Shown: positions 1,369-35,443, counted from the stretch's first letter. The stretch is 35,443 bases of DNA from Victivallales bacterium (GCA_045639225.1 JAZUCR010000551.1:1-35443), one strand, 5' to 3'. The notes: generated by a model from the sequence alone, not told the origin. Numbers and translations: made by a program.

Positions 1369-2244
1369 TCACTCCGGAGACTGCATCTTTTCAGCGTGTT
1401 CGGCCCGGTATTGCGCCGGCGTCAGGCCGTCCCGCTGACGGAACACCCGGGCAAAATAATACGCATACGAAAAGCCGCATTGTCCGGCTACGGTCTCGAC
1501 CGGCAGATCGGTATTTTCCAGCAGATGGACTGCTTTTTCCAGCCGCAGACCGCAGATGTAATGGTTCATCGTGGTGTGAAGATGGTCCTGAAACTGTTTC
1601 CCCAGCGTGACCACACTGGTCCCCGCCGCTTTGGCGACATCCGCCCGGTTCAGGTCCGGATCGCAGAACCGGTTGTCAATATGTGCCAATGCGCGGTTCA
1701 AGGTATCCGGACGGCCGGGTGCCGGTGAAAACTGTTCCGCCGCCTCGCTCAGCAGACGGAATCCCATCGCACCCAGCAAGACGTTATCGGTCTCGCCCGG
1801 CTTGCGCAGAACTTTCCGGATATCTTCGAAACACCGTTTCAGCCGACCGGGATCCGGTGCGTAGTCTTTCGGCAGACCCGCCGGGAACAGACGGTCCAGC
1901 AGGTCCCGCAGAAAACGGTTCACATGGAGCAGCACGAAATAACGTTCCAGAGACTGTCTGCGCCGGTATTTTGTCCGGGTGATCCGATTCAGGTCGGAGA
2001 TCGCAAAAAAACCGGGCTTTCTTACGATCCGGTCCCCGTCCGCATTGATGTAATTCTCCTCGCCGGACAGGATCAGGGAAACCAGGATGAACGGTCTGGC
2101 ATACTCATCCGGATTGAAATCAGGCAGCAGCAGGGAATGGCAGAAGGAATGCACCCGGATGTCCGGCCGACCCGGCCGGAATTCCGAATTGTTCAGCAGA
2201 TAATTTTCCCGGTATTCAGGAGCAGAGGAGCTGCGTTTTTTCAT
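1369..2244 (-). CDS. AraC/XylS family transcriptional regulator
   Basis: C-terminal double HTH: LRLEKAVHLLENTDLPVETVAGQCGFSYAYYFARVFRQRDGLTPAQYR. N-terminal cupin-like ligand domain. Divergent from the pilin operon. Confidence 0.93.
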   Translation of the reverse strand: MKKRSSSAPEYRENYLLNNSEFRPGRPDIRVHSFCHSLLLPDFNPDEYARPFILVSLILSGEENYINADGDRIVRKPGFFAISDLNRITRTKYRRRQSLERYFVLLHVNRFLRDLLDRLFPAGLPKDYAPDPGRLKRCFEDIRKVLRKPGETDNVLLGAMGFRLLSEAAEQFSPAPGRPDTLNRALAHIDNRFCDPDLNRADVAKAAGTSVVTLGKQFQDHLHTTMNHYICGLRLEKAVHLLENTDLPVETVAGQCGFSYAYYFARVFRQRDGLTPAQYRAEHAEKMQSPE

Positions 2245-2294
2245 ATTTCTTTTATATTATTTTATTTTCTTTTTTTATTATTGATTCCGCTGAT

Positions 2295-2334
2295 AATATA
2301 TTGCTTTTTGCGGGAAATGCAAATATATTATCCG
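2295..2334. promoter_or_regulatory. Overlapping bidirectional sigma70-like promoter (copy 1 of a 40-bp repeat)
   Basis: + strand TTGCTT(2301)-N17-TATATT(2324). - strand TTGCAT(2322-2317)-N16-TATATT(2300-2295). Lies between the divergent araC and pilin genes. 39/40 identical to 9294-9333. Confidence 0.65.
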
Positions 2335-2390
2335 AAAATCAAGCAAAAGATTTCGATCGGAATTACCATTAACCAGAAAGGACCAGAATC

Positions 2391-3185
2391 ATGAAGCAGT
2401 TCGAAACCCAGATCCGCCGGAAATCCGTTTTCACGCTGATAGAACTTCTCATTGTGATCGCAATCATTGCCATTCTGGTGGGAATGCTGCTGCCCGCATT
2501 GAATTCGGCCCGCGAAAAAGGCCGGTCCGCGCTCTGCAAAAGCAATCTGAAACAGCAGCATCTGGCTTTTGCCGGATACATCAACGATTATCAGGAATGG
2601 TGCATGGTCCTGTCATATCCGGCGGCATATTTCCCCGGACGGACAATGGGGGTTCCTTGGTATGGACAGATGCAGGAATTGAAATACATTGCCAACGGGA
2701 AAGTTTTCGCCTGTCCGAGCAATAAGGCCCAGGTAAAAGGACAATATCCGAATGACGGCGGCAATACTTACGGATCGACTTATGGCCTGACTTACGGAAC
2801 ATTCGGTGACAGCCTGAAGGGGACTGCAATTGTCCCGATCAAAATGACCTCGCTGGCAAAAGACCGCAGAGCTCCGGGGACGGCAGTGTTCGGCGATACC
2901 GCAGTCATACTTAACGATGACGCCGCAAGATGCTCTTTTCCCGGCATATCCTCCAACCGGCCGGGCGACAGGATCAGCAATGTCAGCAACAATCCATCCA
3001 AAGCTTTCATCGGCAGTGGGGATTACGTTGCCTATGGAGTTTACCTGGTCCATGGCGGACAGTATGCAAATCTGGCGTCCTTCAGCGGCGGGGTAACGAC
3101 TTTCAAGCACCGGGGCGTGAATTTGACAAATTATGACGACTTCAAGCCCAGCAGGCGGCATGACAATACGACCGGACAGTTCTGA
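2391..3185 (+). CDS. Prepilin-type N-terminal cleavage/methylation domain protein (DUF1559-like, degenerate H-X9-DG)
   Basis: KSV|[42 protein letters not shown], an FACP motif, and C-terminal [24 protein letters not shown] upstream. Confidence 0.92.
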
Positions 3186-3224
3186 CAATCGAAATTCGAC
3201 CAATACAAAAAGGAGTGAATTATT

Positions 3225-3782
3225 ATGAAAACCAAAAATCTGTTTCTGCTGGCGGCGCTGGCCGTGTCCGGAATCCTTCATGCGGAAAGCGTGGATATCC
3301 CCGTCCTTTACCGGAACCCCGCCGAAGAAGTGAAAACCGGACAGCTGCAGTCCTTCGGGTTCTATGAAAACGAAACCCGGATCGTCCTCGCCTTCCAGAT
3401 CAAGGATCTACAGGAAACGATGCAGCAGCCGAAAGCCGCGCTCAGTTTTTACGCCGACACCGACAACGACCTGATGACGGGGCGCTATCCGAAAGCGCTG
3501 GGCTGGGATTTCCAGATCAACGTGATGCTGAACCGGAAATCCGCCGTCATGATGAAATGGAACGGCAGCAAGGCGGAGAATTTCAACGTCAAGGGCAAAT
3601 ACGCGGTCTCTTCGGACGGCGACACGCTTTATATCACGTTCCCGAAAAGCGCGGTCCCGGGGATCGAATTCAAGGAACAGTTCAAATTCCGGACGCTGCA
3701 GCTCCGTAACAATCAACGCGTGGACAAACAGAAAACCGACGGGGTGTTCGCGGAAAAATACGAACTTCCCGCCGATAAATGA
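3225..3782 (+). CDS. Secreted hypothetical protein (beta-rich, possibly carbohydrate-binding module-like)
   Basis: Signal peptide MKTKNLFLLAALAVSGILHA, RBS AAGGAG, and a FYADTDNDLMTG DxDxD-like loop. In the operon after the pilin. Confidence 0.75.
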   Translation: MKTKNLFLLAALAVSGILHAESVDIPVLYRNPAEEVKTGQLQSFGFYENETRIVLAFQIKDLQETMQQPKAALSFYADTDNDLMTGRYPKALGWDFQINVMLNRKSAVMMKWNGSKAENFNVKGKYAVSSDGDTLYITFPKSAVPGIEFKEQFKFRTLQLRNNQRVDKQKTDGVFAEKYELPADK

Positions 3783-3793
3783 AAGGTTGAATC

Positions 3794-6064
3794 ATGAAGA
3801 AGCTTCTGCCGCTTTTCCTGCTGTGCATCCTCGCAGCCGGGCTCCCGGCTGGTGAAATCACCATCGATCCCGACCGTGCGGTCATCTCCGCCCAGCAGGC
3901 GAACGATCCCGCCGCACAGGAATTGAAAATGCACCTCGAACTCATCACGGGCAAAACGGTCCCGGTGCTGGGTGCGGGACAAGTCCGGCGGAACGCTTTC
4001 ATCTTCCACATCGGCAAAGCGCCCGCCGGAGCGCCGGAGAAATTGAAGCCGGAGGAAGCGCACTGGGAGATCACTCCGTCCGCGGCGTATTTCTACGGTG
4101 AAGGGACCAAGGGGAGCCTCAATGCGGTTTACGATTTTTTAGAAAACGAACTCGGCGTCCGCTGGCCGGGAGGGGATGATATCGCCTTCCGGAAACAGAA
4201 CCCGATCCAGGTAAAAAACACCTCGGGCAAGTGGATCCCGAAACTGAACATGCGGGGGATCCGTGTCAGCAGCACCGGCGGCCGGGAAGCCAGGGAAGCC
4301 GCTAGCCTGTGGCGGCGAAGACTGCGGACCGGAGGACATGACCGGCCGAGTTACGGGCACGCATTCACACAATACTGGAAACGGTTCGGCAAGACGCATC
4401 CGGAATATTTCGCCATGCGCAAGGACGGAGTCCGGGCGCCGGTCGGAGCAAAAGCCGATGCGGCCAATGCGGCGGCTTTCCGGGGCGCGAAAGCGCAGGC
4501 CATCGCGTTGTGCGTCAGCAATGAAGCACTGGCCGATCAGGTAATCGCCGACTGGCGGGAAAAAGGCTGTCCGCTGTATATCAACCTCTGTGAAAACGAT
4601 GCGCTGGGCAAGGATTCCTGCCATTGTCCGAAATGCACCGCGCTGGATGTGGTTCCCGCCAGGAAGACCCCGTGGGAAAACTGGTATGCGGACCGTTATG
4701 TGAATTTTGCCAACCGGGTGCTGGCCAGGGCCAGGAAGATCCGTCCGGATGTGAAAGCGGCAATGTATGCCTACAATGCCGCGGAGCAGGCGCCGAAACG
4801 GGAAAAACCCGATGCGTCACTCGTGATCGGAATGGTTCCGACCGATTTCACCATGGCCGGAATCGAAGCGTATGTCGGCGCATGGAAAAACGCGGGGCTG
4901 AACCATTTTTTCTATCGGCCGAACCGGCATACTTATTATTCCCTGCCGCAGCTCCCGGTCGGATATGAAAAACACTTTTTCGATCTCTGGCAGTATCTTT
5001 ACCGTTCGGGGGCGATCGGCTTCGATTACGATTCGCAGACCGAGACCGGATGTTTTCAATATTTCGACACCTACGTGCTGCTGAAAGCGATGCAGGATCC
5101 GTCCAAAACGTTTGCCCACTGGGAGAAACATTATATGCAGGCGTTCGGCGCGGCGGCGGATGATATCCGCGAGTATTACCGTTACTGGCGCGAACAGGTC
5201 TGGGAAAAACGGCTGGCACCGGATCAGGCGAAAATCGCCGAACGGGGGAAATGGTTCAATTTCGCCCGCGGACTGGTCTGGAATCTGGGTAAATATTTTA
5301 AGGAAAAAGATTTCATTGAGGCGGGGAAATATCTTGACGCGGCCTTGTTGCGGGATTTGACGGCAGAGGAGCGTGTCCGGATCGAAAAATTGAAACTTGC
5401 CAATGAACACGCGAGGCTCTTTTACCATGCCGTCGTCAACAAAAAAGATGCCGATTCCCTGAAACTGCTGGCATTCCGTGAAAAGCACGGATACACCCTG
5501 CTTCCGGCCAATGAAAAGCATTACGGCGATATCTGCGGCATCCAGCGGGTGATGAATTTCAAAGAATATCTGCCGCCGTATCTGAAAACGCCGCTGTTCT
5601 GGAATTTCAAGCTGGATCCGGAGAACAAAGGTGTATCGGAAAAATGGTATGAAAACACGCCTGCGCAGGTCCGCCGCTGGGGAGCAGTGATGTGTACCAA
5701 TACGCCGTGGGAATCTCCGCACAAACATTACAGGCAGATCTCCGCGGCGATCCGGGCGAAGACCGCACAATATGACGGCATCGCCTGGTATGGCACTCAA
5801 ATCACGATCCCTGCCGACTGGAAAGACCGCAAAGTCTTCCTCTATTTCGGCGCGGTGGATGAATCCTGCCTGCTATATGTCAACGGAAAGAAAGTCGGGG
5901 AAAGGTTTTTCAAAAAATCCAGCGACTGGACGACTCCTTTCGCCATCGAAATCACTTCCTTCATCGACTGGAAACGGAAGCAGCAGAACATCATTGTCCG
6001 GGTGGAGGATACCAATGGACAAGGCGGCATTTGGAAACCAGTCTGGCTGCTATCGAAACAGTAA
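3794..6064 (+). CDS. Secreted DUF4838-domain protein with an N-terminal GH20/GH67-N-like domain and a C-terminal GH2-type sugar-binding jelly-roll
   Basis: Signal peptide. AAQELKMHLELITG...GSLNAVYDFLENELGVRW, HPEYFAM...LCVSN, and CHCPKC are typical of DUF4838 proteins. C-terminal YDGIAWY...LYFGAVDE...YVNG...GGIWKPV is typical of the GH2 N-domain. Confidence 0.82.
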   Translation: MKKLLPLFLLCILAAGLPAGEITIDPDRAVISAQQANDPAAQELKMHLELITGKTVPVLGAGQVRRNAFIFHIGKAPAGAPEKLKPEEAHWEITPSAAYFYGEGTKGSLNAVYDFLENELGVRWPGGDDIAFRKQNPIQVKNTSGKWIPKLNMRGIRVSSTGGREAREAASLWRRRLRTGGHDRPSYGHAFTQYWKRFGKTHPEYFAMRKDGVRAPVGAKADAANAAAFRGAKAQAIALCVSNEALADQVIADWREKGCPLYINLCENDALGKDSCHCPKCTALDVVPARKTPWENWYADRYVNFANRVLARARKIRPDVKAAMYAYNAAEQAPKREKPDASLVIGMVPTDFTMAGIEAYVGAWKNAGLNHFFYRPNRHTYYSLPQLPVGYEKHFFDLWQYLYRSGAIGFDYDSQTETGCFQYFDTYVLLKAMQDPSKTFAHWEKHYMQAFGAAADDIREYYRYWREQVWEKRLAPDQAKIAERGKWFNFARGLVWNLGKYFKEKDFIEAGKYLDAALLRDLTAEERVRIEKLKLANEHARLFYHAVVNKKDADSLKLLAFREKHGYTLLPANEKHYGDICGIQRVMNFKEYLPPYLKTPLFWNFKLDPENKGVSEKWYENTPAQVRRWGAVMCTNTPWESPHKHYRQISAAIRAKTAQYDGIAWYGTQITIPADWKDRKVFLYFGAVDESCLLYVNGKKVGERFFKKSSDWTTPFAIEITSFIDWKRKQQNIIVRVEDTNGQGGIWKPVWLLSKQ

Positions 6065-6298: not shown

Positions 6299-9247
6299 GT
6301 GGGAGGCGACCATAAATTTTACTATGATTTCAATGCGGAAACCAAACTGGAGAACTGGGATGTTGTCCAGCTGGAACAGCATCGGGCGGTTCTGGAATGC
6401 AAGGTCACAATGCCGGAGGGAAATTATATTTTCCTCGCGCCCTGCGCAGCCTTTCTGCCGCAGCTGAAACAGTTTTCCGTAAATGGTCAATCGCTGTCCT
6501 TCGAGAAATCCCAAGCGGTTTACGTGCATAGTTCGTTTGCCCGTTACGGGATAAACTGCCGGATGAAACCGGGCGTCAATGTCCTGACTGCGGGAATCAC
6601 TTTGCCAAAAGATGAAAAATTCGCTCCGGGTCAGCTCTTTTTCTCGCTGATCCGGGCGGAAGAACCGCCCGTTCCGCTCAAAACAACCCGGAGGATGCAT
6701 ACTCTCCCTAAGGCCGCATATCACCGGAACCGTTCCGATTTCGATGCGGGGGGCTGGAAGCCGGGTGTCGGACATAAAAACGGTCCCGGCAGATTCGGTT
6801 TTTCCAAGGGTGACGGTCTGCTGGACTGCGCCATGCCCTCCCTGGGAATCGTGGACAAGATGTTTCTGTGCGGACAGGAAAAATATCACAAACCGTATCG
6901 CTGGAACTATTCGCTGCTGCCGGAAGGCATGGAGCTGCACGGTTCATACGAGCCGAATGACTGCGGGATCGAAAAAGATGAGGTCGAAGTCAATCCGCTG
7001 TCGGTCCGCTGGTCGGCTAAGTATCAGGGGAAACGTTTTTCCTGCACATATTCGCTGGCGTCCCCGGCAATTCTCTGCGAAAATGAAACCGGGGTGATGC
7101 GTCTTTCCAATCTGCGTTTTGCGGGTAATTATCAGTCAGTTCTGATCCCCCGCGAGGCAGGAATTGAGGAAACGGGGCTGGATGAAGCGGATATTGCCGA
7201 TATGGCGGAAAACTGGATCCTGCTGTTCAACAGCACGGAATTCCCGGATTGTCCGCTGATGCTGGTGTTCGAGAACAATCCGGCGGGAATGAAAGTAAAA
7301 CGGGATTCGTCCGGCCGACTGGATTCGATCGAATTTTCGTCCTGTTCCCGGATGCTTAGCTGCACGCCGTTCGGAATTGAACGGTTCGATCCCGGCAAAA
7401 TGAATGTGCACGATGCGGTCCGGCGCTGCCGTTTCTGGAGCCGGGCGCTGCTGGCATATCCGGTCCGCTGCCGCGATTATTTCCGGCTGGATGAAGAAAC
7501 AGAAAAAGTGACCATCCGCCAGAAATTTGAATACCGTTATCTGGAAGATGCCTGGGGGACCGAACCGCTGGAACTGGCGTCGTTTCCGCCGCCGCTTTCG
7601 ATCTGCGGAACCTCGGATTGCAAAGAGATTGCCGATTTTGAGTTTCCGACGAAATACGGACATCTGCGCGGGCGAATCGGCTGCTGGTCGGAATACACTC
7701 TGCCCTTCATGCCCCTCGAAAGAAAGTTCCCGCTCCGGGATGAACATTCCACGATTCCGGATCTGCTCCGGGTGGGAATGGAGAAATATCAGCATGTGGC
7801 GTCTGCATTCGGGCCGGACAAAGTTTCCTATCCTTATGCGGGCGCGATTCTGGAACCTTATGCACTGGCATCCACGATGTCCTTTTTCATGAACGACTCT
7901 GACCGGGATTTTCTCCGTCGGCATCTGGCGGAATGTCTTACGGCGGCATTGGATGCCGATGCGGTTTCCGATTACACTGTGATCGACTGGGGCGAAATGA
8001 TGCGCGACCAGCCGGATCATGAGTCTGTGCTCAAGGTTTACCATGATCCTGCGAAAAAACATATGACGCTGCACAACTGGTATGACCGGGTGGAGCCGTT
8101 CACCGGAGCGAAATTCAAAATCTGTTATTTGAACGTGGGATTCTTTTCCAGCGGAGCGATCAAAACCGCCAGTCAGGAGGAAATCCAGAATCTGAAAATT
8201 CCGCTGATCGAAAACGACTGGGGTGTCGGCCTTACATTCTATTATATCTATCTGAGTTCACTGGCGACCGGTTCTTTCGAAGAGGTCAGGAAACACTGGA
8301 ATCTGCTCAAACAGGTCTATTCGTTTTTCGATCTGATGCACGACTGGGCCTGCATGGGAACCGGATACAGCGACAACGGAATCACGTGGGTGGAAGGAGC
8401 CAATTACGGTCTGTTCCCGACGTTTATCCGCATGGCGGAAGCGGCGCATGATCCGGAAGCCCGTGACTTCGGCATTTATAATGCGGCCAAACAGCTGGCA
8501 TTGCGTCTGGCCATCATGCGGGCCTCGCAAATCTATTTCCCGCAATGTTTTGAAACGGAACCATGGTACTGCGCCAAGCATTTCCATGAAGAAGCCAATC
8601 CGGATAAAGCATTCCAGAATGTTCCAACCCTTTTTGAAGACAGACTGCGCCGCGACGCCGCCTACAACTTCACCACGGAAGGCCTGTATCCGGAAGCTTA
8701 CGAAGCTTTGCGGAAGTTCGGGGGAAACACTTACAGCTCAGTGATGGACCGTTTGGAACATGCTTTGCTGAACGGACTGGACAATCCGGGCTTCCGGTGG
8801 GGGATCATCCAGCAGTTTGCCGGCATGATGATCGATCATGCTTTGGACAGCCAATGTTCCGAAGAAAAGTTTATGGCGCTTCTGGAAGCCGGACTTGAAA
8901 AGGACCTGCTCATGGACGCTTGGCGAGGCATCCATATATTCAGCCGCGTCCTTCCGGAAAATTATCTCCGCTGTCAGCTGCTTGCGTGGATGGAGATGCG
9001 GAAGCATCCGCTTTGGCTGGAGCATTGGGAAGATGTGCGGATCGTTTCTGCACAATGGCATCCGGATTCGAAAACCGCGGAAATCGAAATCCTGATCACC
9101 GGGGAAAACCCGGTTCTGCGCTGCGGAATCAGGACCGTTCCCGATGAAGCGGAGCTGGGTGGAAAAACACTGTCATGGCAAGCCATAAACAGCCAAACGA
9201 TCGAATTCCATCCGGACGCATCTGGAATGCTGCGGATAATGCACTGA
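6299..9247 (+). CDS. Large hypothetical protein (982 aa, GTG start, no signal peptide); probable carbohydrate-active enzyme from context
   Basis: Long ORF with AAGGAG (6283-6288) 10 nt before the GTG. N-terminal half is beta-rich, C-terminal half is helical and Trp/Tyr-rich. No family recognised. Confidence 0.8.
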   Translation: MGGDHKFYYDFNAETKLENWDVVQLEQHRAVLECKVTMPEGNYIFLAPCAAFLPQLKQFSVNGQSLSFEKSQAVYVHSSFARYGINCRMKPGVNVLTAGITLPKDEKFAPGQLFFSLIRAEEPPVPLKTTRRMHTLPKAAYHRNRSDFDAGGWKPGVGHKNGPGRFGFSKGDGLLDCAMPSLGIVDKMFLCGQEKYHKPYRWNYSLLPEGMELHGSYEPNDCGIEKDEVEVNPLSVRWSAKYQGKRFSCTYSLASPAILCENETGVMRLSNLRFAGNYQSVLIPREAGIEETGLDEADIADMAENWILLFNSTEFPDCPLMLVFENNPAGMKVKRDSSGRLDSIEFSSCSRMLSCTPFGIERFDPGKMNVHDAVRRCRFWSRALLAYPVRCRDYFRLDEETEKVTIRQKFEYRYLEDAWGTEPLELASFPPPLSICGTSDCKEIADFEFPTKYGHLRGRIGCWSEYTLPFMPLERKFPLRDEHSTIPDLLRVGMEKYQHVASAFGPDKVSYPYAGAILEPYALASTMSFFMNDSDRDFLRRHLAECLTAALDADAVSDYTVIDWGEMMRDQPDHESVLKVYHDPAKKHMTLHNWYDRVEPFTGAKFKICYLNVGFFSSGAIKTASQEEIQNLKIPLIENDWGVGLTFYYIYLSSLATGSFEEVRKHWNLLKQVYSFFDLMHDWACMGTGYSDNGITWVEGANYGLFPTFIRMAEAAHDPEARDFGIYNAAKQLALRLAIMRASQIYFPQCFETEPWYCAKHFHEEANPDKAFQNVPTLFEDRLRRDAAYNFTTEGLYPEAYEALRKFGGNTYSSVMDRLEHALLNGLDNPGFRWGIIQQFAGMMIDHALDSQCSEEKFMALLEAGLEKDLLMDAWRGIHIFSRVLPENYLRCQLLAWMEMRKHPLWLEHWEDVRIVSAQWHPDSKTAEIEILITGENPVLRCGIRTVPDEAELGGKTLSWQAINSQTIEFHPDASGMLRIMH

Positions 9248-9293
9248 CCGCAAGACGGAGACGTTTTCTTTTTTATTATCAAAAGCTGGGTAA

Positions 9294-9333
9294 AATATAT
9301 TGCTTTTTGCCGGAAATGCAAATATATTATCCG
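9294..9333. promoter_or_regulatory. Promoter of the GH31 gene (copy 2 of the 40-bp repeat)
   Basis: AATATATTGCTTTTTGCCGGAAATGCAAATATATTATCCG, 39/40 identical to 2295-2334. TTGCTT-N17-TATATT, with the repeat ending about 30 nt upstream of ATG 9362. Confidence 0.65.
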
Positions 9334-9361
9334 CCAATCGAATAGCAGAAGGAAACGGAGC

Positions 9362-11305
9362 ATGAATCAATACCATTGGACATTGTTATATCCTGGAATA
9401 TGGAGAGTGCAGACAGCACCCGATCCGGTTACGGTTACCGGCATGGCCGGAGCCAGTCCGTCTTCCGCACTTCAGAAAAAGAGTAAAACTGAATTTCCCG
9501 ATGGAGTAGATGTCCGGAAATCAGGCGGCTATGCGGTCATTCGCATCCCGCTTGGAGAGCGCGAACAGGTTTTCGGATGCGGCCTGCTGTTTCATGGCGT
9601 CATCAGCCGGAATAAGGTTTATCACCTGCGGGTGGATCACTCATCGGGCAGTGATAACGGCAGGGGCCACGCACCGATCCCGTTTGCCGTTACATCATCC
9701 GGGACCGGAATATTCTGCAATTCTCCTTATCCGGTGGATATTTACGTTGGGACTGCACAGCGTCTGGAAGATAAAAAGCTGGTCAGAGAACATGACCGCG
9801 CCACAGATCCGGACTGGACTTGCTATAATGCTCCGTTTTATATCGAAATGGCAGTTGCTGCCAACGAAGCGGAATTCATCCTGTTCCGCGGGGATGATCT
9901 GAAAGACTGCACCGCGAGATTCAATCTGTTCTGCGGCGGCGGATGCCTTCCGCCGAAATGGGGGTTCGGCGTATGGCACAGAACCAACATGTCCATGGCA
10001 GCTCAGGATATTCTGAACGTTGCGAAGGAATACCGCGATCATGATTTCCCGCTGTCGGTTCTCGGATTCGAACCTGGCTGGCAGAGCGGATCGTATCCAT
10101 GCACTTACGACTGGTCGGAGAAAAACTTTCCGGATCCTGCCGGACTGCTGGAGAAGTTGAAAAAACAGGGGATCAGAGTCAATCTCTGGGAAAATCCTTA
10201 TATTTCCGAACGGTCTTCGGTGTATCGGAAGATTCTGCCGTATTGCGGCAGTCATCTGGTCTGGTGCGGAGCGGTTCCGGATTATACGATCCCCGAGGCT
10301 CGTGAGATCCTCAAGGAACACCATCAGAAAACGCACTTCGATATCGGGGTCAGCGGATATAAACTGGATGAAAGCGACGGTTATGACGCATGGCTGTGGC
10401 CGGACCACACGGAATTCCCGTCCGGTCTGAGCGGATTGGCTGTCCGCAATACCTGCGGTCTGCTGTTCCAGAAACTGACTTATGACATTTATCACGGGAA
10501 TAACCAGCGGACTTACGGGTTGACCCGCTCCACGGCCGGCGGCGGTGTATCGTTCCCTTATGTGATTTACAATGACCGCTATGATTACAGCGAATTTATT
10601 GCCGGACTCTGTTCCTGCGGATTTACGGGAGCCTTGTGGTGTCCGGAACTGCGGAACGGATCGACTCCACTGGAATGGCTGAGGCGTTTCCAGCTGGCTG
10701 CATTATCTCCGGTCCTTCTGCTGAACGCCTGGGCCAATCATGCCACACCGTGGATGTTTCCGGAAGTGAAAAACGAGATCCGCGATGCAGTGACACTTCG
10801 GGAAAAACTTCTGCCGTATCTGTATTCTGCCTTTGCCCGGTATCATTTCGAAGGCATTCCGCCGTACCGCGCAGTATTTATGGATTACGGAATGTTCATC
10901 GAACAGAAAACCGGACAGGGAGAACTGGATCCGACCGAAAATCCATATCAGCTGGTAAAGAAAAATGATATTGCAGATCAGTTTATGGTCGGCGATTCCC
11001 TGATGGCGGCTCCCATGCCGATCGACCGAAATTCCAGAAACGTGATTTTCCCGCCGGGGAAATGGTATGATTTCCACTCCGGAGAATTCGTATCGGACGG
11101 AGGTGTTCTCGAGATCCGCCGCGGGGAAAAAGACCCGCTTCCGTTGTTTGTGCCGGACGGAGCCGTGGTTCCGCTGGATCAGAACGGAAGCATCGAGATC
11201 CGGAAGTTCGGCACGAAACCCGGCAAATTCATGCTTTATGAAGATGACGGGGAAACTTTCGGTTACGAGCAGGGCGAATATCATTGGACTGAGCTGAAAG
11301 CATGA
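9362..11305 (+). CDS. Glycoside hydrolase family 31 (alpha-glycosidase)
   Basis: PPKWGFGVW, FPDPAGLLEKLKKQGIRVNLWENPYI, nucleophile region GYKLDESDG, LREKLLPYLYS, DQFMVGDSLMAAP, and LYEDDGET. Confidence 0.93.
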   Translation: MNQYHWTLLYPGIWRVQTAPDPVTVTGMAGASPSSALQKKSKTEFPDGVDVRKSGGYAVIRIPLGEREQVFGCGLLFHGVISRNKVYHLRVDHSSGSDNGRGHAPIPFAVTSSGTGIFCNSPYPVDIYVGTAQRLEDKKLVREHDRATDPDWTCYNAPFYIEMAVAANEAEFILFRGDDLKDCTARFNLFCGGGCLPPKWGFGVWHRTNMSMAAQDILNVAKEYRDHDFPLSVLGFEPGWQSGSYPCTYDWSEKNFPDPAGLLEKLKKQGIRVNLWENPYISERSSVYRKILPYCGSHLVWCGAVPDYTIPEAREILKEHHQKTHFDIGVSGYKLDESDGYDAWLWPDHTEFPSGLSGLAVRNTCGLLFQKLTYDIYHGNNQRTYGLTRSTAGGGVSFPYVIYNDRYDYSEFIAGLCSCGFTGALWCPELRNGSTPLEWLRRFQLAALSPVLLLNAWANHATPWMFPEVKNEIRDAVTLREKLLPYLYSAFARYHFEGIPPYRAVFMDYGMFIEQKTGQGELDPTENPYQLVKKNDIADQFMVGDSLMAAPMPIDRNSRNVIFPPGKWYDFHSGEFVSDGGVLEIRRGEKDPLPLFVPDGAVVPLDQNGSIEIRKFGTKPGKFMLYEDDGETFGYEQGEYHWTELKA

Positions 11306-11331
11306 AATATATGGGAGTGTAAACGGGGAAA

Positions 11332-25998: not shown

Positions 25999-26118
25999 GA
26001 TTTCCGCTCCTTTCAAACTTGTTTTTTAACTTGCGCCATCAGAATCTGTATTTTTTGCGCGTCAAAATTTTTTTTCAATCTGGATGCATTCCTCCCGGAT
26101 TCAGTATCTGACTCGAAT

Positions 26119-27561
26119 TCACGGCTTTTTCCGATTTACGATCCCGCTTTGGACGCTGTCAATGATCAAATCGGGGTTTTCAATTTTTAATGAAATACCT
26201 GCCGGATTCCGGTTGATCACATTGCTGATGCAGGAGTTCTGAAGTCCGCCAAGGACACGGACACTATGCCGGGCGTTTCCATTGACATTGGAAACGTTGA
26301 TATTGAACAATGCCTGTTCGAATTGTTTTCCATATGGATGGCCGGGTTCTCCGACGATACCGGGAGCCTTGCCCAAAGCAATGTCATCAAGAACATGAAA
26401 ATCATCAGGAGATGCATCGATCACGTTGTCAATGGAGACATTGTGGATTTCCCCACCTTCTATGCCAAGCAAACGGATAATGGAACATCCTCCGGCCGGG
26501 TAGGCAAGCACGTTGCGGATGATTACATTGCGGATCCCCATTTCACGCCGGGTCCAGTCGTTGCCCAGCACGTGGGAGGATCTCATTCTGCCGCTTTTCA
26601 ATTTCCATTGCGGAGTAGTAATGGCCGTCAACGCAATGACGTCGTCACCCGTCTTCCCCGTTATGTCGGAAACGATGATGTCATGACAGCCGTTCCGGAG
26701 ATTGACACCGTCCTGGTTTTCAACATTATGTTCCGCGCCGTCGATAATGCGTTTTTGCGATGCACTGAAGTCAATATGACTGACATTCCCGTATGTGCAG
26801 TCTTCAAGGGAAATAGCCCAGCCATGCTGTTCCACAATGCGGATGTTTTCAATGGAAAAATGACTGACCTTCGCAAAAAGGATCCCGATATTGCGCCAGT
26901 CGCCATACGGAGATTCCCCCTTTACGAGAGCATCCGTCCCATACGTATGGGCGTGCAGATCGGCGAAGGTCGGTTTCGCCGAACCGGAAAAATTTCTGGG
27001 ACAGGGGCAGGCAAGTATTTTGGTACTGTCGCCAGTGGAACGCGGGTGGTCGGCACCTTCCAGAATACAGCATCCGATCCCTTTGATATGTATGTTTTCC
27101 ACCGATCCCGGTTCCTCGATCCCCAAACCGCAGTTGGCGCTGCGGAAAAAATTATCCCGGCACTTGTCGGAAAGTTTGATTTTGCAGTCCTGAAGCACAA
27201 TCGTCGTATTCGAGGGAAGAAGTATTGCACGGTCCAGCTTCCACCAGGTACGGTCCGGCTCGATGTTCGAGACCCGCTTGGGGATAATGACAATATTGCC
27301 GTTCCGTCCGCGGATGGCAGCCTCGATCCGATCGTTGTCGGTCTTTCCCTCATAATCGTTGACCGTTTTTAACGTCGCTCCATATTCGGATACTTTCATT
27401 TTCTTCTCCATGATGTTTTTGTTTTTACCGATTTCAAGTTCCGCCCCGGCAAGCAGAAATGATGCAGACGCTGCTCCCAGGAATAACAATTTTTCAATGA
27501 ACAACCGACCGGATAGCCATTGTATCCTTGCTCTGAAAGTTTTGTTCAGGCAAATTATCAT
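26119..27561 (-). CDS. GH28-like right-handed beta-helix (pectin lyase-fold) glycoside hydrolase
   Basis: NQDGVNL...GDDVIAL matches the GH28 NTD/DD catalytic aspartates. Asn/Ile ladder repeats. Start placed at ATG 27561 after AAGGAGG. Confidence 0.8.
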   Translation of the reverse strand: MIICLNKTFRARIQWLSGRLFIEKLLFLGAASASFLLAGAELEIGKNKNIMEKKMKVSEYGATLKTVNDYEGKTDNDRIEAAIRGRNGNIVIIPKRVSNIEPDRTWWKLDRAILLPSNTTIVLQDCKIKLSDKCRDNFFRSANCGLGIEEPGSVENIHIKGIGCCILEGADHPRSTGDSTKILACPCPRNFSGSAKPTFADLHAHTYGTDALVKGESPYGDWRNIGILFAKVSHFSIENIRIVEQHGWAISLEDCTYGNVSHIDFSASQKRIIDGAEHNVENQDGVNLRNGCHDIIVSDITGKTGDDVIALTAITTPQWKLKSGRMRSSHVLGNDWTRREMGIRNVIIRNVLAYPAGGCSIIRLLGIEGGEIHNVSIDNVIDASPDDFHVLDDIALGKAPGIVGEPGHPYGKQFEQALFNINVSNVNGNARHSVRVLGGLQNSCISNVINRNPAGISLKIENPDLIIDSVQSGIVNRKKP

Positions 27562-27604
27562 TCTCGTCCTCCTTGATGAATGGTTCGTTTTTTTAATATA
27601 CTGA

Positions 27605-27716
27605 ATTATATACATTTTCGGCTGAAAAACAAGGGATAAAAAGCGGTTTATTATGGAAAATAATTCAAGATATATGAAAAATCGTATTTGCAAGAAAAAT
27701 CAATGCGTGGTATATT
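27605..27716. promoter_or_regulatory. Divergent promoters for the GH28-like gene and araC
   Basis: - strand TTGTTT(27632-27627)-N16-TATAAT(27610-27605). + strand TTGCAA(27688)-N17-TATATT(27711), with a TG extended -10. Confidence 0.55.
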
Positions 27717-27749: not shown

Positions 27750-28658
27750 ATGGAAATCGTCAATAAAGATTCTTTCAATACCTGGATCCGGCACAAATTG
27801 AAGATCCAGCTGAGTAACTGGCGGCCAGCCTCGGCATTCACACTGGTTCTCTGGCCGGATTTCGCAACGAGGGTCACTTATGCGGACGGTTATTTTGTCC
27901 GGCACACCCATTATGAAAGATGGTGCGCCTGTTCAGTGGAAAAAGGCTGTCTCCAGGTGATCAGCAACGGAAAGGCCGTCAAAATCAAAGAGGGACAGAC
28001 CGCGCTGATCCCGCCGGGGCCGCATACGCTGTCGGCCGAGGACGGCGAGGTCACCGTCAAAGTATTGGGGATCGAAGGACACGTGCTGCGGCTGATTCTG
28101 GAAACCCTCGCATTCAACCGCTGTCTGGTGGTCGAAGATTTTCTCACGGAAGAATACGAACGCCTTTTCGATGAGGTTTATTCTTTGCTCGGGAAAAGGG
28201 ATCCGGCATATGCTCCCCGGCTGTCCCTGCTGGCGTATGCGATCCTGATGTATGCAGTCCGGTTCGTTCCCCGGCAGAAACTGCCGGAAGAATTAGTGCT
28301 GGGGCAGCAGTTCATCCAGCGGAATCTGTTCCAGAAAATCACTTTGGCGGATCTTTGCCGGGAGACGGGGTGTTCCCGGACCCGGCTTTGCATGCTGTTC
28401 AAGCAGTATACGACGTTTTCACCTGGGGAATATATTGCGAACAAACGGCATAAATATGCCATGGACCTGTTGACCTCATCGCCGACATTGCCGGTCAAAC
28501 AGGTAGCCAGCTATTGCGGCTACCGCAGCCAGCTGTATTTCTCCAAAGATTTCAAGAAACACACCGGCATGTCTCCCAGCCGCTACAGGGAAAAATATTC
28601 CCGGCAAAGCCCTTCCCCGGATTGTTTACCGTTCCCCCGGAAGAAGCAGGACCGATAA
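27750..28658 (+). CDS. AraC/XylS family transcriptional regulator
   Basis: Cupin N-terminus (RHTHYE...LIPPGPH). HTH AMDLLTSSPTLPVKQVASYCGYRSQLYFSKDFKKHTGMSPSRYR. Confidence 0.93.
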   Translation: MEIVNKDSFNTWIRHKLKIQLSNWRPASAFTLVLWPDFATRVTYADGYFVRHTHYERWCACSVEKGCLQVISNGKAVKIKEGQTALIPPGPHTLSAEDGEVTVKVLGIEGHVLRLILETLAFNRCLVVEDFLTEEYERLFDEVYSLLGKRDPAYAPRLSLLAYAILMYAVRFVPRQKLPEELVLGQQFIQRNLFQKITLADLCRETGCSRTRLCMLFKQYTTFSPGEYIANKRHKYAMDLLTSSPTLPVKQVASYCGYRSQLYFSKDFKKHTGMSPSRYREKYSRQSPSPDCLPFPRKKQDR

Positions 28659-30720: not shown

Positions 30721-31761
30721 ATGGGAAAGACAGAAAATCTATCAAAAGTTTCGAAGGTCAAGCACTATCTCTACGGATGCATCCGGCATTCGGACCGGAT
30801 GAACGATCTGCTGCCGGGGGAAGCGGAGCTGTGCCGGAAATTCGGATTTGCACGGGGGACAGTGCAGCGGGCAATCGACGAATTGATAAAAAGTAATTTC
30901 ATTCTGAAGAAACCCGGACGGCACGGACTTTATATCAATCTGGAGATGATAGATCTGGTCCCGGTTTCGATCGGCATCGTGATGAATAAAGGCATATCGG
31001 AAATCGTCTCCAGTTCGGCGGCCAATGCGTATGCGGGCTTCATCAAATCGATCACGGCCGATGCCGACACGGAATACATCTTTCACGACCTGCTGGAAAC
31101 CGATTTCGATTCGATCTACGATTCCGCCCGGGAAAACGGCGTGCAGGGTCTGCTGTGGATCTTATCCAATCGGGACGACCCGAAATGCATCGAGGTGTTC
31201 AATACGTTTGCGGAACGGAATTTTCCGGCAGCGGCGGTAGGGTTTTCCTATGACAGCAGCATTCCGGTGCCCTGCTGCAACACGGTGATGCGGGATTATG
31301 CCGAACTCGGGGAACGGCTGGCAGATTTCATCCATGCGAAAGGCTATTCGAACCCGCTGTTCATCGGACAGGATCAATGCATCATGAAGAATTTCATGGC
31401 CCGTTTCGGACGGGAAATCACCTGTTATACGGCAGAGACCGACCCGAACGGGGAGCTGGATGCCATTCTGGCCCGACAGGAATATGATTGTGCGATTTCA
31501 GGGGGCGGCCCGCGGCGTTACGCCATGCTGGCAAAAGCGATGAACCAAAGCACCTACACCAGATCGCTTCCGCTCATTCTCCGGAATTATCACATGACGA
31601 AACGGTTTAAGGCGGAAAATCCGGCTTTGAAAATCCAGGTGATGGACGAAATGTCCGCTCCGGCTTTCATGTTCAAATCGGGAGAGGCGGCGGGACGCAT
31701 GTTCCTGAAACTGCTGAAAAACCCGGCTTTGAAAATCAATAATCTGCTGCTGAAATCATAA
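30721..31761 (+). CDS. GntR-family regulator (winged HTH plus periplasmic-binding-protein-like effector domain)
   Basis: LPGEAELCRKFGFARGTVQRAIDEL...KPGRHGLYI, followed by a LacI/AraR-type C-terminal domain (IGIVM..., NTVMRDYAELGERLADFI). Confidence 0.88.
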   Translation: MGKTENLSKVSKVKHYLYGCIRHSDRMNDLLPGEAELCRKFGFARGTVQRAIDELIKSNFILKKPGRHGLYINLEMIDLVPVSIGIVMNKGISEIVSSSAANAYAGFIKSITADADTEYIFHDLLETDFDSIYDSARENGVQGLLWILSNRDDPKCIEVFNTFAERNFPAAAVGFSYDSSIPVPCCNTVMRDYAELGERLADFIHAKGYSNPLFIGQDQCIMKNFMARFGREITCYTAETDPNGELDAILARQEYDCAISGGGPRRYAMLAKAMNQSTYTRSLPLILRNYHMTKRFKAENPALKIQVMDEMSAPAFMFKSGEAAGRMFLKLLKNPALKINNLLLKS

Positions 31762-31782: not shown

Positions 31783-32658
31783 ATGACCATGCAGAAATGC
31801 ACCAACAATTTTATCCTCCCATCGTTCATTTCCTTGTCCTCCACAGCTCGAAGAGCGGAGGAGGATCATCATTCATCATTTGAGCGCAAAACGGGCCGTT
31901 TTACGCTCATAGAGCTCCTGGTCGTGATTGCGATCATTGCGATCCTGGCGGGAATGCTGCTGCCGGCACTGAATCATGCAAAACAGACAGCGCAGGCGAT
32001 CTCGTGCAAAAACAATGTCCGCCAGACCGGCGTTGCCTTTGCCTTTTATAAGGACGACTGGAAGAATTACTACTACGCACCGTACGGAGCGGGTTCGTCG
32101 CCGAACTACCAGGATCCGACCTTTCCTACCAGTTCGGTTCCCTCTTATGCGACCATTCTGCGGTGGAACGGGTATGTGAAAAACTGGAAAAGCATGCGGT
32201 GCGTCAGCGGTCCGGCGCCGCAGTACAAAGGCAAAACCGATGACATTTACGGCAACAATGAAGTTTTCGGGGTGCCCTACAACCGGAATTCCAACAATTT
32301 CGGCAAACGGTATGTTGAATGTTCGAACAAAGGATTCACCACCTCGGGCGGATACGGCACCGCCTTCACCGGCATTCCCCCCTCGGAAGTCCTTCAGGCT
32401 GCGTGCTCGATCAATGCCAATACCAGACTTCAGGGCGGGCTGGTCTCTTTTCAAGATACCTTCAGTGACAATATGAGCGCCAATTATGTCAATCTCGTTC
32501 ACAACAGCAAAGCCAACGCCGTGATGTGGGACGGTCATTGTTCCGAGGTCGAAAGAAGGGCCACGCGGATTTTTACTCCCAATTGCAGTCAGCTCAAACT
32601 GTATCCGGTCGTAAAGTATTATGAAAAAGGCGTAGTCCGTTACCGGGCGGCGCTTTGA
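31783..32658 (+). CDS. Prepilin-type N-terminal cleavage/methylation domain protein with canonical H-X9-DG motif (DUF1559-like)
   Basis: TGR|[42 protein letters not shown] and [14 protein letters not shown]. Leader of 37-39 aa. Confidence 0.92.
31837..31865. repeat. REP-like GC-rich hairpin inside the pilin leader coding sequence
   Basis: TCCTCC-ACA-GCTC-GAA-GAGC-GGAGGA(GGA), encoding [10 protein letters not shown]. Flanked by TCATT/TCATC microrepeats. Confidence 0.45.
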
Positions 32659-32689
32659 TCATGACGGACCACTGATTGGAGAACCCGCT

Positions 32690-35443
32690 ATGAAAAGTCT
32701 GTCCGCATTATTTCTTTCAACCGTGTTTCTGTCTCTTTCCGGGGCCAATCTGATTCCGGGCGACACCAGTGCCGAAACCGAACGGGCCACCGCCGGAAAC
32801 GGGAAATTCGGAGCCATGGTCTATGGACATGGAAACGCCCGTCTCGCCTGGGACCGTTCGGCAGGCTTCGACGGGAAATCTTCGCTCAAGACCATGACCC
32901 CCGATGTTTTCAGTCTCAAAAAGAGCGTCAAGCTCCGGAAAGGCACCAGATACACCTTTTCTTTCTATGCGAAAGCGGGGCGTGACGGGGTCCGCGGACA
33001 GATCAACTGCGTCCCTTCCGATCTGCGGCAATGGCCGCTGCCGGGCGGCGGACGCAATATCGTGTTTACCACCGAATGGAAACGGTATGCCTTCACCTTC
33101 ACGGCAGCCAAAGATTCCCCGTATTCCGGGATTTACCGGGTGTTTGACAAGGATGCGGAGGTGAATTTCGATGCCTTCATGCTGGAACCAGGGGATAAGA
33201 CTTCCCCCTATCGCCCTGCTTCGAACTTTACGGTCGGCATCAGCTCGAACGAGATCCCCGGAAATATATTATATCTCCATGAACAGGTCGAACTTGCCGT
33301 TTCCGTGCGGCGGTTCGAAGGGAACGGCAAATGCTCGCTGAAGATCCATATCATCGACCATAAAGGGAAAACGCTTAAAAAATATGAAGTCACTCCGGTT
33401 TTCGATCAGGACGGCAGGTTGCGTTTCAAGCCGGATTTCAAACCCTCGCACCCCGGCTGGTTCAGAGTGGAAGCCGAAGCAGAGACAGCGGACGGAAAAA
33501 GCCGGGATGCCCGTTCGTATGTGGTGACTGTGCCGGCAGTTCCTGCGGAGAAATCCATCCCTCCGTTCTGCGGATTCTGTTCCCCGTTCACTCCCCGGGA
33601 GATATTTCAGCGCATGGGGGCAGGATGGCGGTATTACTCTCAGGAATTCAGTTATGCCATGTCGGAAAAAGGCAAAATCAAACTTTTCGGAATGGATTTC
33701 GTCAGAAAAGACAAGGAAGCCGGCTTGTCCGTCAAGCTGATGATCAACCTGCATCCGCCGATGCGTCTGATGAGTCCGGAAGAGAAAGCAGCAATGAAAC
33801 AATACGGGCTTTCACCCGTCCGCTTTGTCCCCGGAAAGAATGCCGATGAAGACTGGGAAAAATTTATGAAGGAACTGGTCGACAAGTATTGGAAATATGT
33901 CGATGTGTGGGAATTCGGCGGCGAACTGGATGCCCGTTTCGGACTGAACCCATATTACAAGAACAAATATCCTGATGATGTGAAAGGGGCATTTGCCATG
34001 GGACGGATCCCGGAACGCGTCGCGGAACTGATCCGGACCGGCGCCAGGATCATCCGGGAAAAAAAGCCCCATGCCCTGATCACGGCGATCCGGCCGTGCG
34101 ATGTGGACTGCAGGAATAAATTCTTTTTCAGTTCCGCCGTGTATGAACGGGTGCCGGGATGCTTGAACGCGTTCGGCATTGACTGTTATGCCCGGCCGCG
34201 CCGGATCGGTCCGAAGGAACCGCTTCCCGGACCGGTGACGGATCTGATCGGCCAGTATGGAGATGCCATGAAAACGCTCGGAAAATCTTCCCCTGGCAGT
34301 AAAGATGTCTTCATCTCCGAATTCGGATACGAGCTGATGCTGGATTCAGTCAACGACTTGACGCTGCTCAACCGTTATGCGGCCTGCCTTGCCCAGTCTC
34401 TGCTGATGGCGAGGGCGGCGGGATTCACCAGTCTGGCTTTCTATTCTTCCCTGGGAATGTGTGAAACGGCCAAATCCACTTATACTCACTGGATCGGAGA
34501 AAATCCGCTTCCGTCTGTGTCCACTTACTGCAATATCGCGCGTTTTCTCCGCAATGTGGATCGGGCGGAGTATTCGATCCCCACAACCGATACCGTCGCC
34601 TGCATCTACGGAAAATCGGACGGTTCCGCCTGCGGTGCCGTCTGGACTTGCAATCCGGAAAGTTCGCCTCTGATCGTTATGGACCAAGTCCGGACTTCCG
34701 ATATGAACGGCATTCCTGTGGAATTCAAATCCGAAAACGGGAAAATCCGTTTCTCCGCCGGATTCGAACCGGTCCTCTTTCATGTCAGGAATTATGCCGA
34801 GGCGAAAAAGATCCTCGGAAACATGAAATTCATCCGGAAAGATCCGCTGAAAATCGATTTCAGGATGAAGACACGCAATTCCGTCAAGATGTATCTCTCA
34901 TCCAAATCGGCGCAGCGGCCCACCCGGTGCCTGTTCTCTTTCAACGGCAGAAAATACGATGTGATCGTCCCGCCGTCTGAATATGCCGTTTTCGAACTTC
35001 CGCTGGAGCCCGGCCGGGAAAAAATCAGTCTGACGCTCGATTTCCCGGAAAACGGACAGCAGATGCAGCTGGAATACGATATCCCGAAAATCGCCGAAGT
35101 CCCGAAAATCGCCGGACCGTTCCCGGTCGATGCCGAGCCGAAAAAATGGAAAAAACTTCCCTCGATGATTTTCGATTCGACCGAACTGATCTACCCGATC
35201 GATGTATTCGGATGGCACGGCAGGGAAGACCTTTCGGTCCGGCTCAATCTCGCCCATGACGGAAAACACCTTTATATTTTCGCCGCGGTAAAGGATGATC
35301 TGCACTGCAACCGGCATTCGGGACAGGGTGTTTCCGCGGGTGATATTTTCCAGATCGCATTCGATCCCAAAACCAACACTTTCGGCACCGGGAAGGACGG
35401 CAGACGCCCGGATGACACCAATATCGCCCTGGCCCTTGCCGCA
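32690..35443 (+). CDS. Secreted multidomain clan GH-A (GH39-like) hydrolase with an N-terminal CBM4/9-like and a C-terminal CBM9-like domain; 3'-truncated by the window
   Basis: Absent from the ORF track, consistent with no in-frame stop before the window end. GGAGA RBS, then MKSLSALFLSTVFLSLSGANLIPG...YTFSFYAK...TTEWKRYAFTF. Later YVDVWEFGGELD, VFISEFGY, and DLSVRLNLAHDGKHLYIFAAVKDD...GDIFQIAFDP. Confidence 0.85.
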   Translation, partial: MKSLSALFLSTVFLSLSGANLIPGDTSAETERATAGNGKFGAMVYGHGNARLAWDRSAGFDGKSSLKTMTPDVFSLKKSVKLRKGTRYTFSFYAKAGRDGVRGQINCVPSDLRQWPLPGGGRNIVFTTEWKRYAFTFTAAKDSPYSGIYRVFDKDAEVNFDAFMLEPGDKTSPYRPASNFTVGISSNEIPGNILYLHEQVELAVSVRRFEGNGKCSLKIHIIDHKGKTLKKYEVTPVFDQDGRLRFKPDFKPSHPGWFRVEAEAETADGKSRDARSYVVTVPAVPAEKSIPPFCGFCSPFTPREIFQRMGAGWRYYSQEFSYAMSEKGKIKLFGMDFVRKDKEAGLSVKLMINLHPPMRLMSPEEKAAMKQYGLSPVRFVPGKNADEDWEKFMKELVDKYWKYVDVWEFGGELDARFGLNPYYKNKYPDDVKGAFAMGRIPERVAELIRTGARIIREKKPHALITAIRPCDVDCRNKFFFSSAVYERVPGCLNAFGIDCYARPRRIGPKEPLPGPVTDLIGQYGDAMKTLGKSSPGSKDVFISEFGYELMLDSVNDLTLLNRYAACLAQSLLMARAAGFTSLAFYSSLGMCETAKSTYTHWIGENPLPSVSTYCNIARFLRNVDRAEYSIPTTDTVACIYGKSDGSACGAVWTCNPESSPLIVMDQVRTSDMNGIPVEFKSENGKIRFSAGFEPVLFHVRNYAEAKKILGNMKFIRKDPLKIDFRMKTRNSVKMYLSSKSAQRPTRCLFSFNGRKYDVIVPPSEYAVFELPLEPGREKISLTLDFPENGQQMQLEYDIPKIAEVPKIAGPFPVDAEPKKWKKLPSMIFDSTELIYPIDVFGWHGREDLSVRLNLAHDGKHLYIFAAVKDDLHCNRHSGQGVSAGDIFQIAFDPKTNTFGTGKDGRRPDDTNIALALAA

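Follow-up and report, generated by a model that had tools for sequence, protein, structure and literature searches.

What function ties a pilin-like protein to the secreted enzyme encoded directly behind it? The question is raised by a 35,443-nucleotide (nt) stretch of DNA from a Victivallales bacterium (GCA_045639225.1, JAZUCR010000551.1:1-35443; hereafter the window), in which three modules each join a transcriptional regulator, a pilin-like gene (pilins 1, 2 and 3) and a gene for a secreted protein. An earlier note on this DNA had claimed these modules, and Pfam and NCBIfam scans of the window's proteins located all three, with each pilin gene directly ahead of a gene for a signal-peptide protein (gaps of 39, 15 and 31 nt). 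The window is contig C551 of genome bin G000 (5.9 Mb, 952 contigs, 86% complete) and was found to hold 22 genes from its open reading frames (ORFs) and a simple gene caller based on dicodons. It was present, in whole or part, in 20 of 24 listed sequencing runs from 10 studies, all probably DNA and from bovine gut or gut metagenome wherever the organism was stated, and no RNA run was among those listed. The organism is a cattle-gut Lentisphaerae bacterium.

We assessed the arrangement across the whole of G000, whose 4916 genes were called by the dicodon heuristic and whose signal peptides were assigned by a similarly simple heuristic. Pilin-like genes were collected as 224 genes with an FTLIELL-type motif, and a hidden Markov model built from these matched 237 genes at E<1e-5; a PF07963 search yielded 278 candidates, and all 150 that were scored matched. 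Since the module thus occurs genome-wide, the presence of three pilin genes among the window's 22 genes is unremarkable (P=0.087). The gene order itself recurs across the genome far beyond chance. Among pilin genes with a downstream neighbor, 198/221 are followed by a same-strand gene for something other than a pilin or a regulator, at a median gap of 24.5 nt, and these next genes encode proteins with a median length of 736 amino acids (aa), compared with 305 aa genome-wide, 79% of them with an apparent signal peptide (21% genome-wide).

The pairing follows export and protein size, not sugar chemistry as such. Of the signal-peptide proteins of at least 800 aa, 68/107 are encoded directly behind a pilin gene and 19 more one gene further on, compared with 43/112 of those of 500–800 aa, 10–16% of shorter signal-peptide proteins and 1–9% of proteins without a signal peptide. 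DUF4838-like genes stand directly behind a pilin gene in 43 of 63 assessable cases. To describe the downstream proteins we used a random sample of 60 from the 149 complete downstream genes, with the window's own omitted. Pfam assigned DUF4838 to 12, CBM9 to 7, Laminin_G_3 to 5, CBM_4_9 to 5 and beta-helix domains to 3; GH42, PL8, GH20, GH63, GH123, sulfatase and trehalase were also found, as were a few non-glycan families (for example, Peptidase_M14). Many of the 60 had no Pfam match, and for this reason a pilin-like gene could serve to mark unclassified secreted enzymes.

Upstream, the pilin genes are associated with regulators. Iterative searches seeded from the window's AraC- and GntR-type proteins showed both types to be greatly expanded, with 119 AraC-type and 150 GntR-type genes (median length of the latter 357 aa) among the 4916. 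A pilin gene lies directly downstream of 61/129 GntR-type genes, and an adjoining divergent pilin gene accompanies 14/106 AraC-type genes, with 16 more at one gene's remove. Overall, a GntR- or AraC-type regulator was found at most three genes upstream of 130/210 pilin genes, compared with 507/3522 other genes. The enrichment anticipated in the earlier note, of pilin genes beside carbohydrate-active secreted proteins and GntR/AraC regulators, proved strong genome-wide. In 105 cases the upstream same-strand gene was neither a regulator nor a pilin; 16% of the 101 measured had an apparent signal peptide, and no large family was found among these genes (biggest cluster 5/101). The pilin gene immediately precedes the exported protein even behind upstream cytoplasmic genes, and cytoplasmic enzymes may also follow, as in module 1.

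The pairing is inherited within G000 and recurs in other genomes. On contig C410, a paralogue of the module 1 DUF4838 enzyme (68% identical) comes immediately after a pilin with 53% identity to pilin 1, and a second paralogous pair is 35% (pilin) and 33.5% (enzyme) identical. When 87 pilins were each matched to the closest head relative, that relative stood ahead of a related enzyme in 33 cases (6.4 expected by chance). Pilin loci in 8 other genomes all showed a pilin-like gene followed by a same-strand signal-peptide ORF (9/9), with a spacing of 12–87 nt or an overlap, one of the pilin genes being cut by the locus end. In G037, a 99% complete genome of the same order and another family, an N_methyl match was found 1.0–1.2 kb upstream, on the same strand, of 9 of the 16 listed DUF4838 matches, with ~0.4 expected by chance and 150 of 198 N_methyl candidates scored. 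For relatives of the DUF4838 enzyme (40–93% identity), 18 loci were assessable, from 10 other genomes with a match together with the G000 paralogue; a pilin-like ORF lies at most 1.5 kb upstream at 12/18, and 7 of those 12 ORFs are similar to pilin 1 over nearly the whole of pilin 1 (38–84%). The lists of homologues obtained for pilin 1 and for its enzyme have at least seven 'longest contig' lengths in common, a hint that the two may be linked there. For pilin 3, a search of 40 relatives gave one true orthologue, 78% identical. Module 3 is retained at a sister locus, L070 (regulator 67%, pilin 78% and enzyme 74% identical). At that locus a gene for a 778-aa sodium:solute symporter (SSF)-like protein (L070:3537-5873) lies between the GntR regulator and the pilin gene, where the window has 21 nt. 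We considered an SSF-like transporter as a general part of the module and rejected it, as in G000 a pilin gene stood at +2 for 3/19 assessable cases and at +1 for 0. Across 41 related genomes, the number of pilin candidates correlates with genome size (Spearman 0.91) and with DUF4838 counts (0.67); some of these genomes have ~140–240 pilin candidates and almost no DUF4838.

By sequence, all three window proteins belong with the pilins. Each exceeds the TIGR02532 cut-off of 16.3 bits (19.6, 20.8 and 21.0 bits), pilin 1 also exceeds that of PF07963 (N_methyl, 21.2 bits), and each has the N-terminal hydrophobic helix with Glu at +5 that characterizes the type IV pilin/pseudopilin superfamily (FTLIE in 3/3). 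The motifs earlier noted as common to them were confirmed, with FTLIELL in 3/3, CKSNLKQ in pilins 1 and 2 and CKNNVRQ in pilin 3. The H-X9-DG-like tail held exactly for pilin 3; pilin 2 has H-x9-DF and pilin 1 H-x11-GG. A looser form, H-x(8-10)-[DS][GF], was found in 146/224 pilin-like genes. Pilins 1 and 3 scored 18.6 and 18.0 bits with PF07596 (DUF1559; cut-off 23.3 bits), over profile positions 2–42 only, and pilin 2 had no match; TIGR04294 (H-X9-DG, NCBIfam) gave no match at E 0.01 for any of the three. Because many of their homologues carry PF07596 or those names, we regard the window pilins as divergent DUF1559/H-X9-DG relatives. They share with the DUF1559/H-X9-DG paralogues of bacteria of the Planctomycetes–Verrucomicrobia–Chlamydiae (PVC) group the N-terminal helix, the CKxN(L/V)(K/R)Q box and the H-x9-DG-like tail, but score below the PF07596 cut-off, and the modelled heads do not bear out the 'solute-binding' label of that family ('SBP_bac_10'). 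Two papers describe DUF1559 as a large PVC-restricted family, and one of them states that its function is unknown (PMC10632474; PMC4807772).

An AlphaFold model of pilin 1 (63 sequences, predicted local distance difference test (pLDDT) 92.7) and a model of pilin 3 (31 sequences, pLDDT 79.8) both have an N-terminal helix of ~50 residues and a beta-rich head. Compared with a set of representative structures, pilin 1 matched type IV pilins or pseudopilins in every one of its top 24 rows (best Z 5.5). Among them were PilA4 (Z 5.5, root-mean-square deviation (rmsd) 3.9 over 122 aligned residues) and EpsG (Z 5.3, rmsd 3.2 over 95 residues). For pilin 3, pilins or pseudopilins likewise filled all of the top 18 rows (Z 2.5–4.6). 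Foldseek against the PDB with the pilin 3 model returned nothing at E 0.001 or better. The modelled heads are consistent with a pilin fold, though the Z scores are low in absolute terms. Pilin 1 aligned with 62 homologues that are 34–94% identical over their full length (63 sequences, mean column identity 39%), and the orthologues of pilin 3 are 93–38% identical over the mature part. As far as these alignments go, each head type is a conserved orthologue group, and the heads differ between modules.

The genome also encodes machinery that could take up such proteins. We found one Peptidase_A24 match (prepilin peptidase), 12 matches to T2SSE, 7 to T2SSF and 10 to secretin (~9 ORFs). A gspE-gspF pair on contig C100 is continued on C833 by genes for a GspG-like protein of 143 aa and for three minor pseudopilins (GspH/I/J-like), contig C431 has two tandem ATPases and a platform gene, and PilT-sized and PilB-type ATPases are also present. 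Judged by family matches, peptidase, assembly ATPase, platform and secretin are all in the genome; the single locus expected in the earlier note was not found, the components being spread over several. The signal peptides seen on the enzymes are of the Sec type. The pilin-like proteins thus share with the pseudopilins GspG-K and with type IV pilins the hydrophobic N-terminal helix with Glu5, the TIGR02532 match and the presence of the machinery in the genome, and the models of pilins 1 and 3 are consistent with a pilin-like alpha/beta head. They differ in number (237 copies per genome rather than ~5–10), in the size of the head (about twice as large, ~240 aa in the mature protein), in the rarity of Gly at −1 and in their location, as the genes are scattered, one per exoenzyme operon, outside the machinery operon.

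The fixed place before an exported protein, the ratio of about one pilin per large exported protein and the co-inheritance of the pairs together indicate a function tied to the neighboring exported protein. Our preferred reading, which we hold tentatively and at rather less than even confidence, is that each module is a separately regulated operon in which the enzyme is escorted or tethered by a private pseudopilin. A GntR-type (possibly AraR-like) or AraC-type regulator would control the pilin-like gene, which would share a transcript with the genes directly behind it, those for one or two large, Sec-exported and mostly carbohydrate-active enzymes. The near-invariant prepilin helix would anchor the protein in the inner membrane, from where a shared machinery of the type II secretion or type IV pilus kind may take it up. 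The variable head would recognize the folded neighboring enzyme, which would then be passed to the secretin for export or kept tethered at the cell surface. A complex prediction for the pilin 1 head (38-264) with the DUF4838 enzyme (21-756), using 63-row alignments, gave a score of 0.00, which counts neither way.

The earlier note had proposed that each pilin is a glycan-specific subunit of a shared fibre (one that could be retractile) and that, like SusD in Bacteroidota, it serves to capture or import the substrate on which its operon acts. We consider this possible, if somewhat less likely than the reading above. Its context stood up: the identifiable proteins in the downstream sample are mostly carbohydrate-active, sugar-type regulators are enriched upstream (130/210 compared with 507/3522), PilT-sized and PilB-type ATPases are in the genome, heads are constant within orthologue groups and different between modules, and scans of the window show no other binding or transport component. 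On this last point the note was correct, as no SusC/SusD, TonB-receptor or ABC-transporter family turned up in the Pfam and NCBIfam scans of the window's main ORFs. The specific capture role did not stand in the same way. No lectin, carbohydrate-binding module (CBM) or solute-binding fold was among the structural matches of either modelled head (pilins 1 and 3), and these heads resemble pilins and pseudopilins only. In addition, related enzymes often lie behind unrelated heads, and a few downstream genes, such as that for Peptidase_M14, are non-glycan. The pairing is moreover about one pilin for each large exported protein, rising with protein length, and not one for each multi-enzyme locus. 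This is no obvious expectation for a substrate binder, and an enzyme-directed role fits it at least as well.

Several observations weigh against a private pseudopilin that escorts its enzyme. The first is the residue at −1, where the prepilin peptidase classically requires Gly: only 10/224 pilin-like genes of G000 have it. In the window, this residue is Val in pilin 1 (2427-2429), whose mature part starts at F14, Cys in pilin 2 (25926-25928, minus strand) and Arg in pilin 3 (31897-31899), where a leader of 39 residues precedes the F at 31900. Because Gly at −1 is so rare, processing and fibre assembly are uncertain. Either the prepilin peptidase of this lineage has an unusual specificity or the pilin-like proteins are not cleaved. 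If the latter, they could be unprocessed, unpolymerized inner-membrane proteins that help the enzyme to fold, or hold it, in the periplasm, or that act as a regulator-coupled sensor. We regard this as improbable. It would account for the lack of Gly in 214/224 genes and in all 7 of the intact pilin genes read in relatives, for leaders that are long and variable (median ~20 residues) and for the finding of a single prepilin peptidase gene. However, Gly at −1 is absent from the ordinary pseudopilins of the type II secretion operon as well (Asn, Pro, Pro and Cys in the GspG/H/I/J-like genes of C833), so the peptidase of the lineage may tolerate residues other than Gly; Glu5 and the helix show the conservation seen in pilins that assemble; and the GntR and AraC regulators are cytoplasmic, so that no membrane sensor is needed.

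The second is the looseness of the tie between head type and enzyme type. In 54/87 cases the enzyme behind a pilin's closest head relative is unrelated, and the correlation between head and enzyme matrices was 0.022, within the permutation range (maximum 0.049). Third, enzymes occur without a pilin: for 76/219 assessable large signal-peptide proteins, the three genes upstream include no pilin gene, and 6/18 loci of DUF4838-enzyme relatives lack one. Tandem arrays of three or four related DUF4838 genes (G015:C133:2714-14281 and G023:C49:11623-19761) have gaps of ~100–220 nt, too short for a pilin gene, so pilin-less copies exist. The loose tie and the third of related enzyme loci without a pilin gene speak against a strict code that links heads to enzymes. 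Any contact of a head with its enzyme is moreover an inference, the gene calls and signal peptides come from simple in-house heuristics, and the P values are too favorable, because paralogues and related genomes are not independent.

The looseness of the tie would be expected if there were no specific partnership at all, the pilins being variants of a fibre subunit that can stand in for one another (serving, for example, to vary the surface) and that head highly expressed secretion operons duplicated as units. Modules do duplicate as units, and pilin candidates scale with genome size over the 41 genomes, as noted above. We nevertheless think this explanation very improbable, given the strict order and short gap in 198/221 cases, the survival of that order through deep divergence (pilin identity down to 36–38%) and the conservation of heads within orthologue groups (63 sequences in the pilin 1 group), which argues for a maintained function tied to the neighboring gene.

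Returning to the escorting or tethering pseudopilin, its boldest form would be a cargo-coded secretion in Lentisphaeria, where nearly every large exoenzyme has its own pseudopilin, the head reading the folded enzyme and the helix plugging into a shared type II secretion or pilus machine. We view this form as doubtful. By analogy, in type III secretion a small dedicated partner gene, that of the chaperone, lies beside each effector (cargo) gene, and one export machine is shared; the parallel concerns another secretion system, and those chaperones are cytoplasmic, unlike the pilin-like proteins here, which are predicted to be membrane-anchored. If cargo coding were true, it would solve how one machine recognizes hundreds of unrelated cargoes, and the expansion of DUF1559/H-X9-DG in PVC bacteria would be one of secretion adaptors or surface tethers. 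An adaptor role, if it holds, would be relevant to a long-standing question, namely how substrates are recognized in type II secretion.

Compared with the SusC/SusD polysaccharide utilization loci of Bacteroidota, the modules share the plan of many separately regulated loci, each uniting secreted enzymes for glycan degradation with a regulator and an accessory protein that is not catalytic. They differ in that window scans gave no SusC, SusD or TonB-dependent transporter, in the small size of the operons, with about one accessory protein per enzyme, and in the probable pilin fold of that accessory protein. Boedeker and colleagues reportedly proposed, in 2017, a fibre-assisted uptake of polysaccharides in Planctomycetes, with pilus-like fibres in glycan acquisition; the proposal is said to name neither a pilin family nor a gene pairing. 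Full-text searches, which did not cover supplementary files or subscription journals, found no description of a pilin-exoenzyme pairing, and a term search of one further paper (PMC13526803) did not return it. We rate the pairing as a new arrangement built on known kinds, namely pseudopilins and regulated loci like those for polysaccharide utilization. DUF1559/H-X9-DG is among the largest paralogous families of PVC bacteria, and a fixed partnership with large exported enzymes gives it a testable role, with export, tethering and substrate capture as the candidates. The arrangement also suggests a way in which glycan degraders that are abundant in gut and rumen, yet have no SusC/SusD, organize polysaccharide breakdown.

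Within the window, module 1 begins with an AraC-type regulator (1369-2244, minus strand; HTH_18 70.5 bits, HTH_AraC 34.7 bits), divergent from pilin 1 (2391-3185, plus strand; N_methyl 27.6 bits, TIGR02532 19.6 bits) with 146 nt between them. At 39 nt past the pilin gene follows a gene for a 185-aa signal-peptide protein (3225-3782, plus strand), and then that for the exported enzyme with DUF4838 (78.4 bits) and Glyco_hydro_2_N (50.6 bits) domains (3794-6064, plus strand), which is likely the cognate of pilin 1. The 185-aa protein is 29% identical to residues 31–197 of a 747-aa protein encoded directly behind another pilin gene, and so resembles the N-terminal 170 residues alone of that protein; its gene is retained with the same spacing in G001, a genome of the same genus (608-nt gap). 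A same-strand tail (6299-12540, plus strand; Pfam) encodes a 982-aa protein, a GH31 enzyme (9362-11305) and a 402-aa protein, and inspection of their N-termini showed no signal peptide in any of the three.

Module 2 has an AraC-type regulator (27750-28658, plus strand; HTH_18 79.8 bits, AraC_binding 24 bits) divergent from a 524-aa ORF (26119-27693, minus strand), which lies upstream of pilin 2 (25222-26016, minus strand; TIGR02532 20.8 bits, N_methyl 19.8 bits with a cut-off of 21.2). The start of pilin 2 is probably the ATG at 25998. The 524-aa protein had been called GH28-like; an Atlas lead, the one source of this label, agrees (score 0.98, 24/30 matches in GH28 clusters), while Pfam gave no match. 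Its true start is probably near 27372, as paralogues align from residue 108 onward only. The gene 15 nt past pilin 2 encodes an exported protein of 1811 aa with a signal peptide (19771-25206, minus strand; Laminin_G_3 62.8 bits, Glyco_hydro_42M 38.8 bits, GLMA_2nd 37.9 bits).

In module 3, the 346-aa regulator (30721-31761, plus strand) scored 23.3 bits with Pfam GntR (cut-off 27) and has NCBIfam GntR-family matches; its best PDB sequence match is the AraR DNA-binding domain (E 0.023). Pilin 3 follows (31783-32658, plus strand; TIGR02532 21.0 bits, PF07963 20.5 bits with a cut-off of 21.2) and, 31 nt further on, the gene for an exported CBM-bearing protein with a signal peptide, cut by the window end (32690-35443, plus strand; CBM_4_9 22.1 bits, below the cut-off). 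The 1019-aa orthologue in L070, 74% identical, has both CBM_4_9 (27.0 bits) and CBM9 (CBM9_1, 27.5 bits). The earlier GH39-like label could not be confirmed. Sequence searches of the PDB with the 524-aa protein, the 1811-aa protein and the 1019-aa orthologue gave no matches.

Between the modules lie genes for a Ser/Thr kinase with a Cache sensor, phosphofructokinase, GatC/GatA, a glucuronyl esterase and ribosomal protein S15. As housekeeping genes (phosphofructokinase, GatC/GatA, S15) separate them, the modules are separate operons and not one system. The kinase gene (12577-14946, minus strand), between modules 1 and 2, encodes a Ser/Thr protein kinase fused to a dCache/PDC sensor domain, and its product may be a sensor of extracellular signals. 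An ORF cut by the window start (1-1353, plus strand) has no Pfam or NCBIfam match and at least 12 paralogues of ~650 aa in G000.

The leader of pilin 3 has a further feature at the nucleotide level, two hairpins within its codons (31813-31909, plus strand; RNA fold −30.7 kcal/mol, z −3.21). In the second (31881-31909), the 3' arm consists of the F-T-L codons. Rfam gave no family at gathering score anywhere within the window. A perfect stem of at least 7 base pairs ending in the FTL codons was found in 34/214 pilin genes, compared with 0/214 shuffled sequences, with compensatory arm changes. The long leaders contain tandem heptamers, and the 5' arm of their hairpin encodes K-R-K. Two conserved long leaders were recognized, type A, which starts MN(K/R) and continues for 25 residues more, and type B, SSLISH(I/L)SYLKRKT. 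Such leaders are common to otherwise dissimilar pilins and occur across metagenomes, and their motifs are mostly at pilin leaders (49/78 heptamer matches and 7/9 type A cores). Pilin 3 has a type A leader, the leader of a homologue with 93% identity over the mature part is type-B-like, and those of other close orthologues are unrelated; because close orthologues differ in this way, leaders seem to be exchanged independently of heads. Two explanations were tried and rejected. First, the hairpin is not tied to GntR-led modules (6/32 compared with 54/170, P=0.20). Second, a mobile element of the GIY-YIG/Ssn type, a lead that came in part from PMC11893778, is not supported, as the genome has 2 GIY-YIG matches and neither lies beside a pilin gene.

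The repeated N-terminal coding sequence also bears on the assembly. Contigs of G000 often end in or near the near-identical N-terminal coding part of pilin genes, the upstream neighbor is absent for 27/237 pilin genes, and several ORFs begin inside the conserved helix. The breakup of the genome into 952 contigs is probably due in large part to this repeat.

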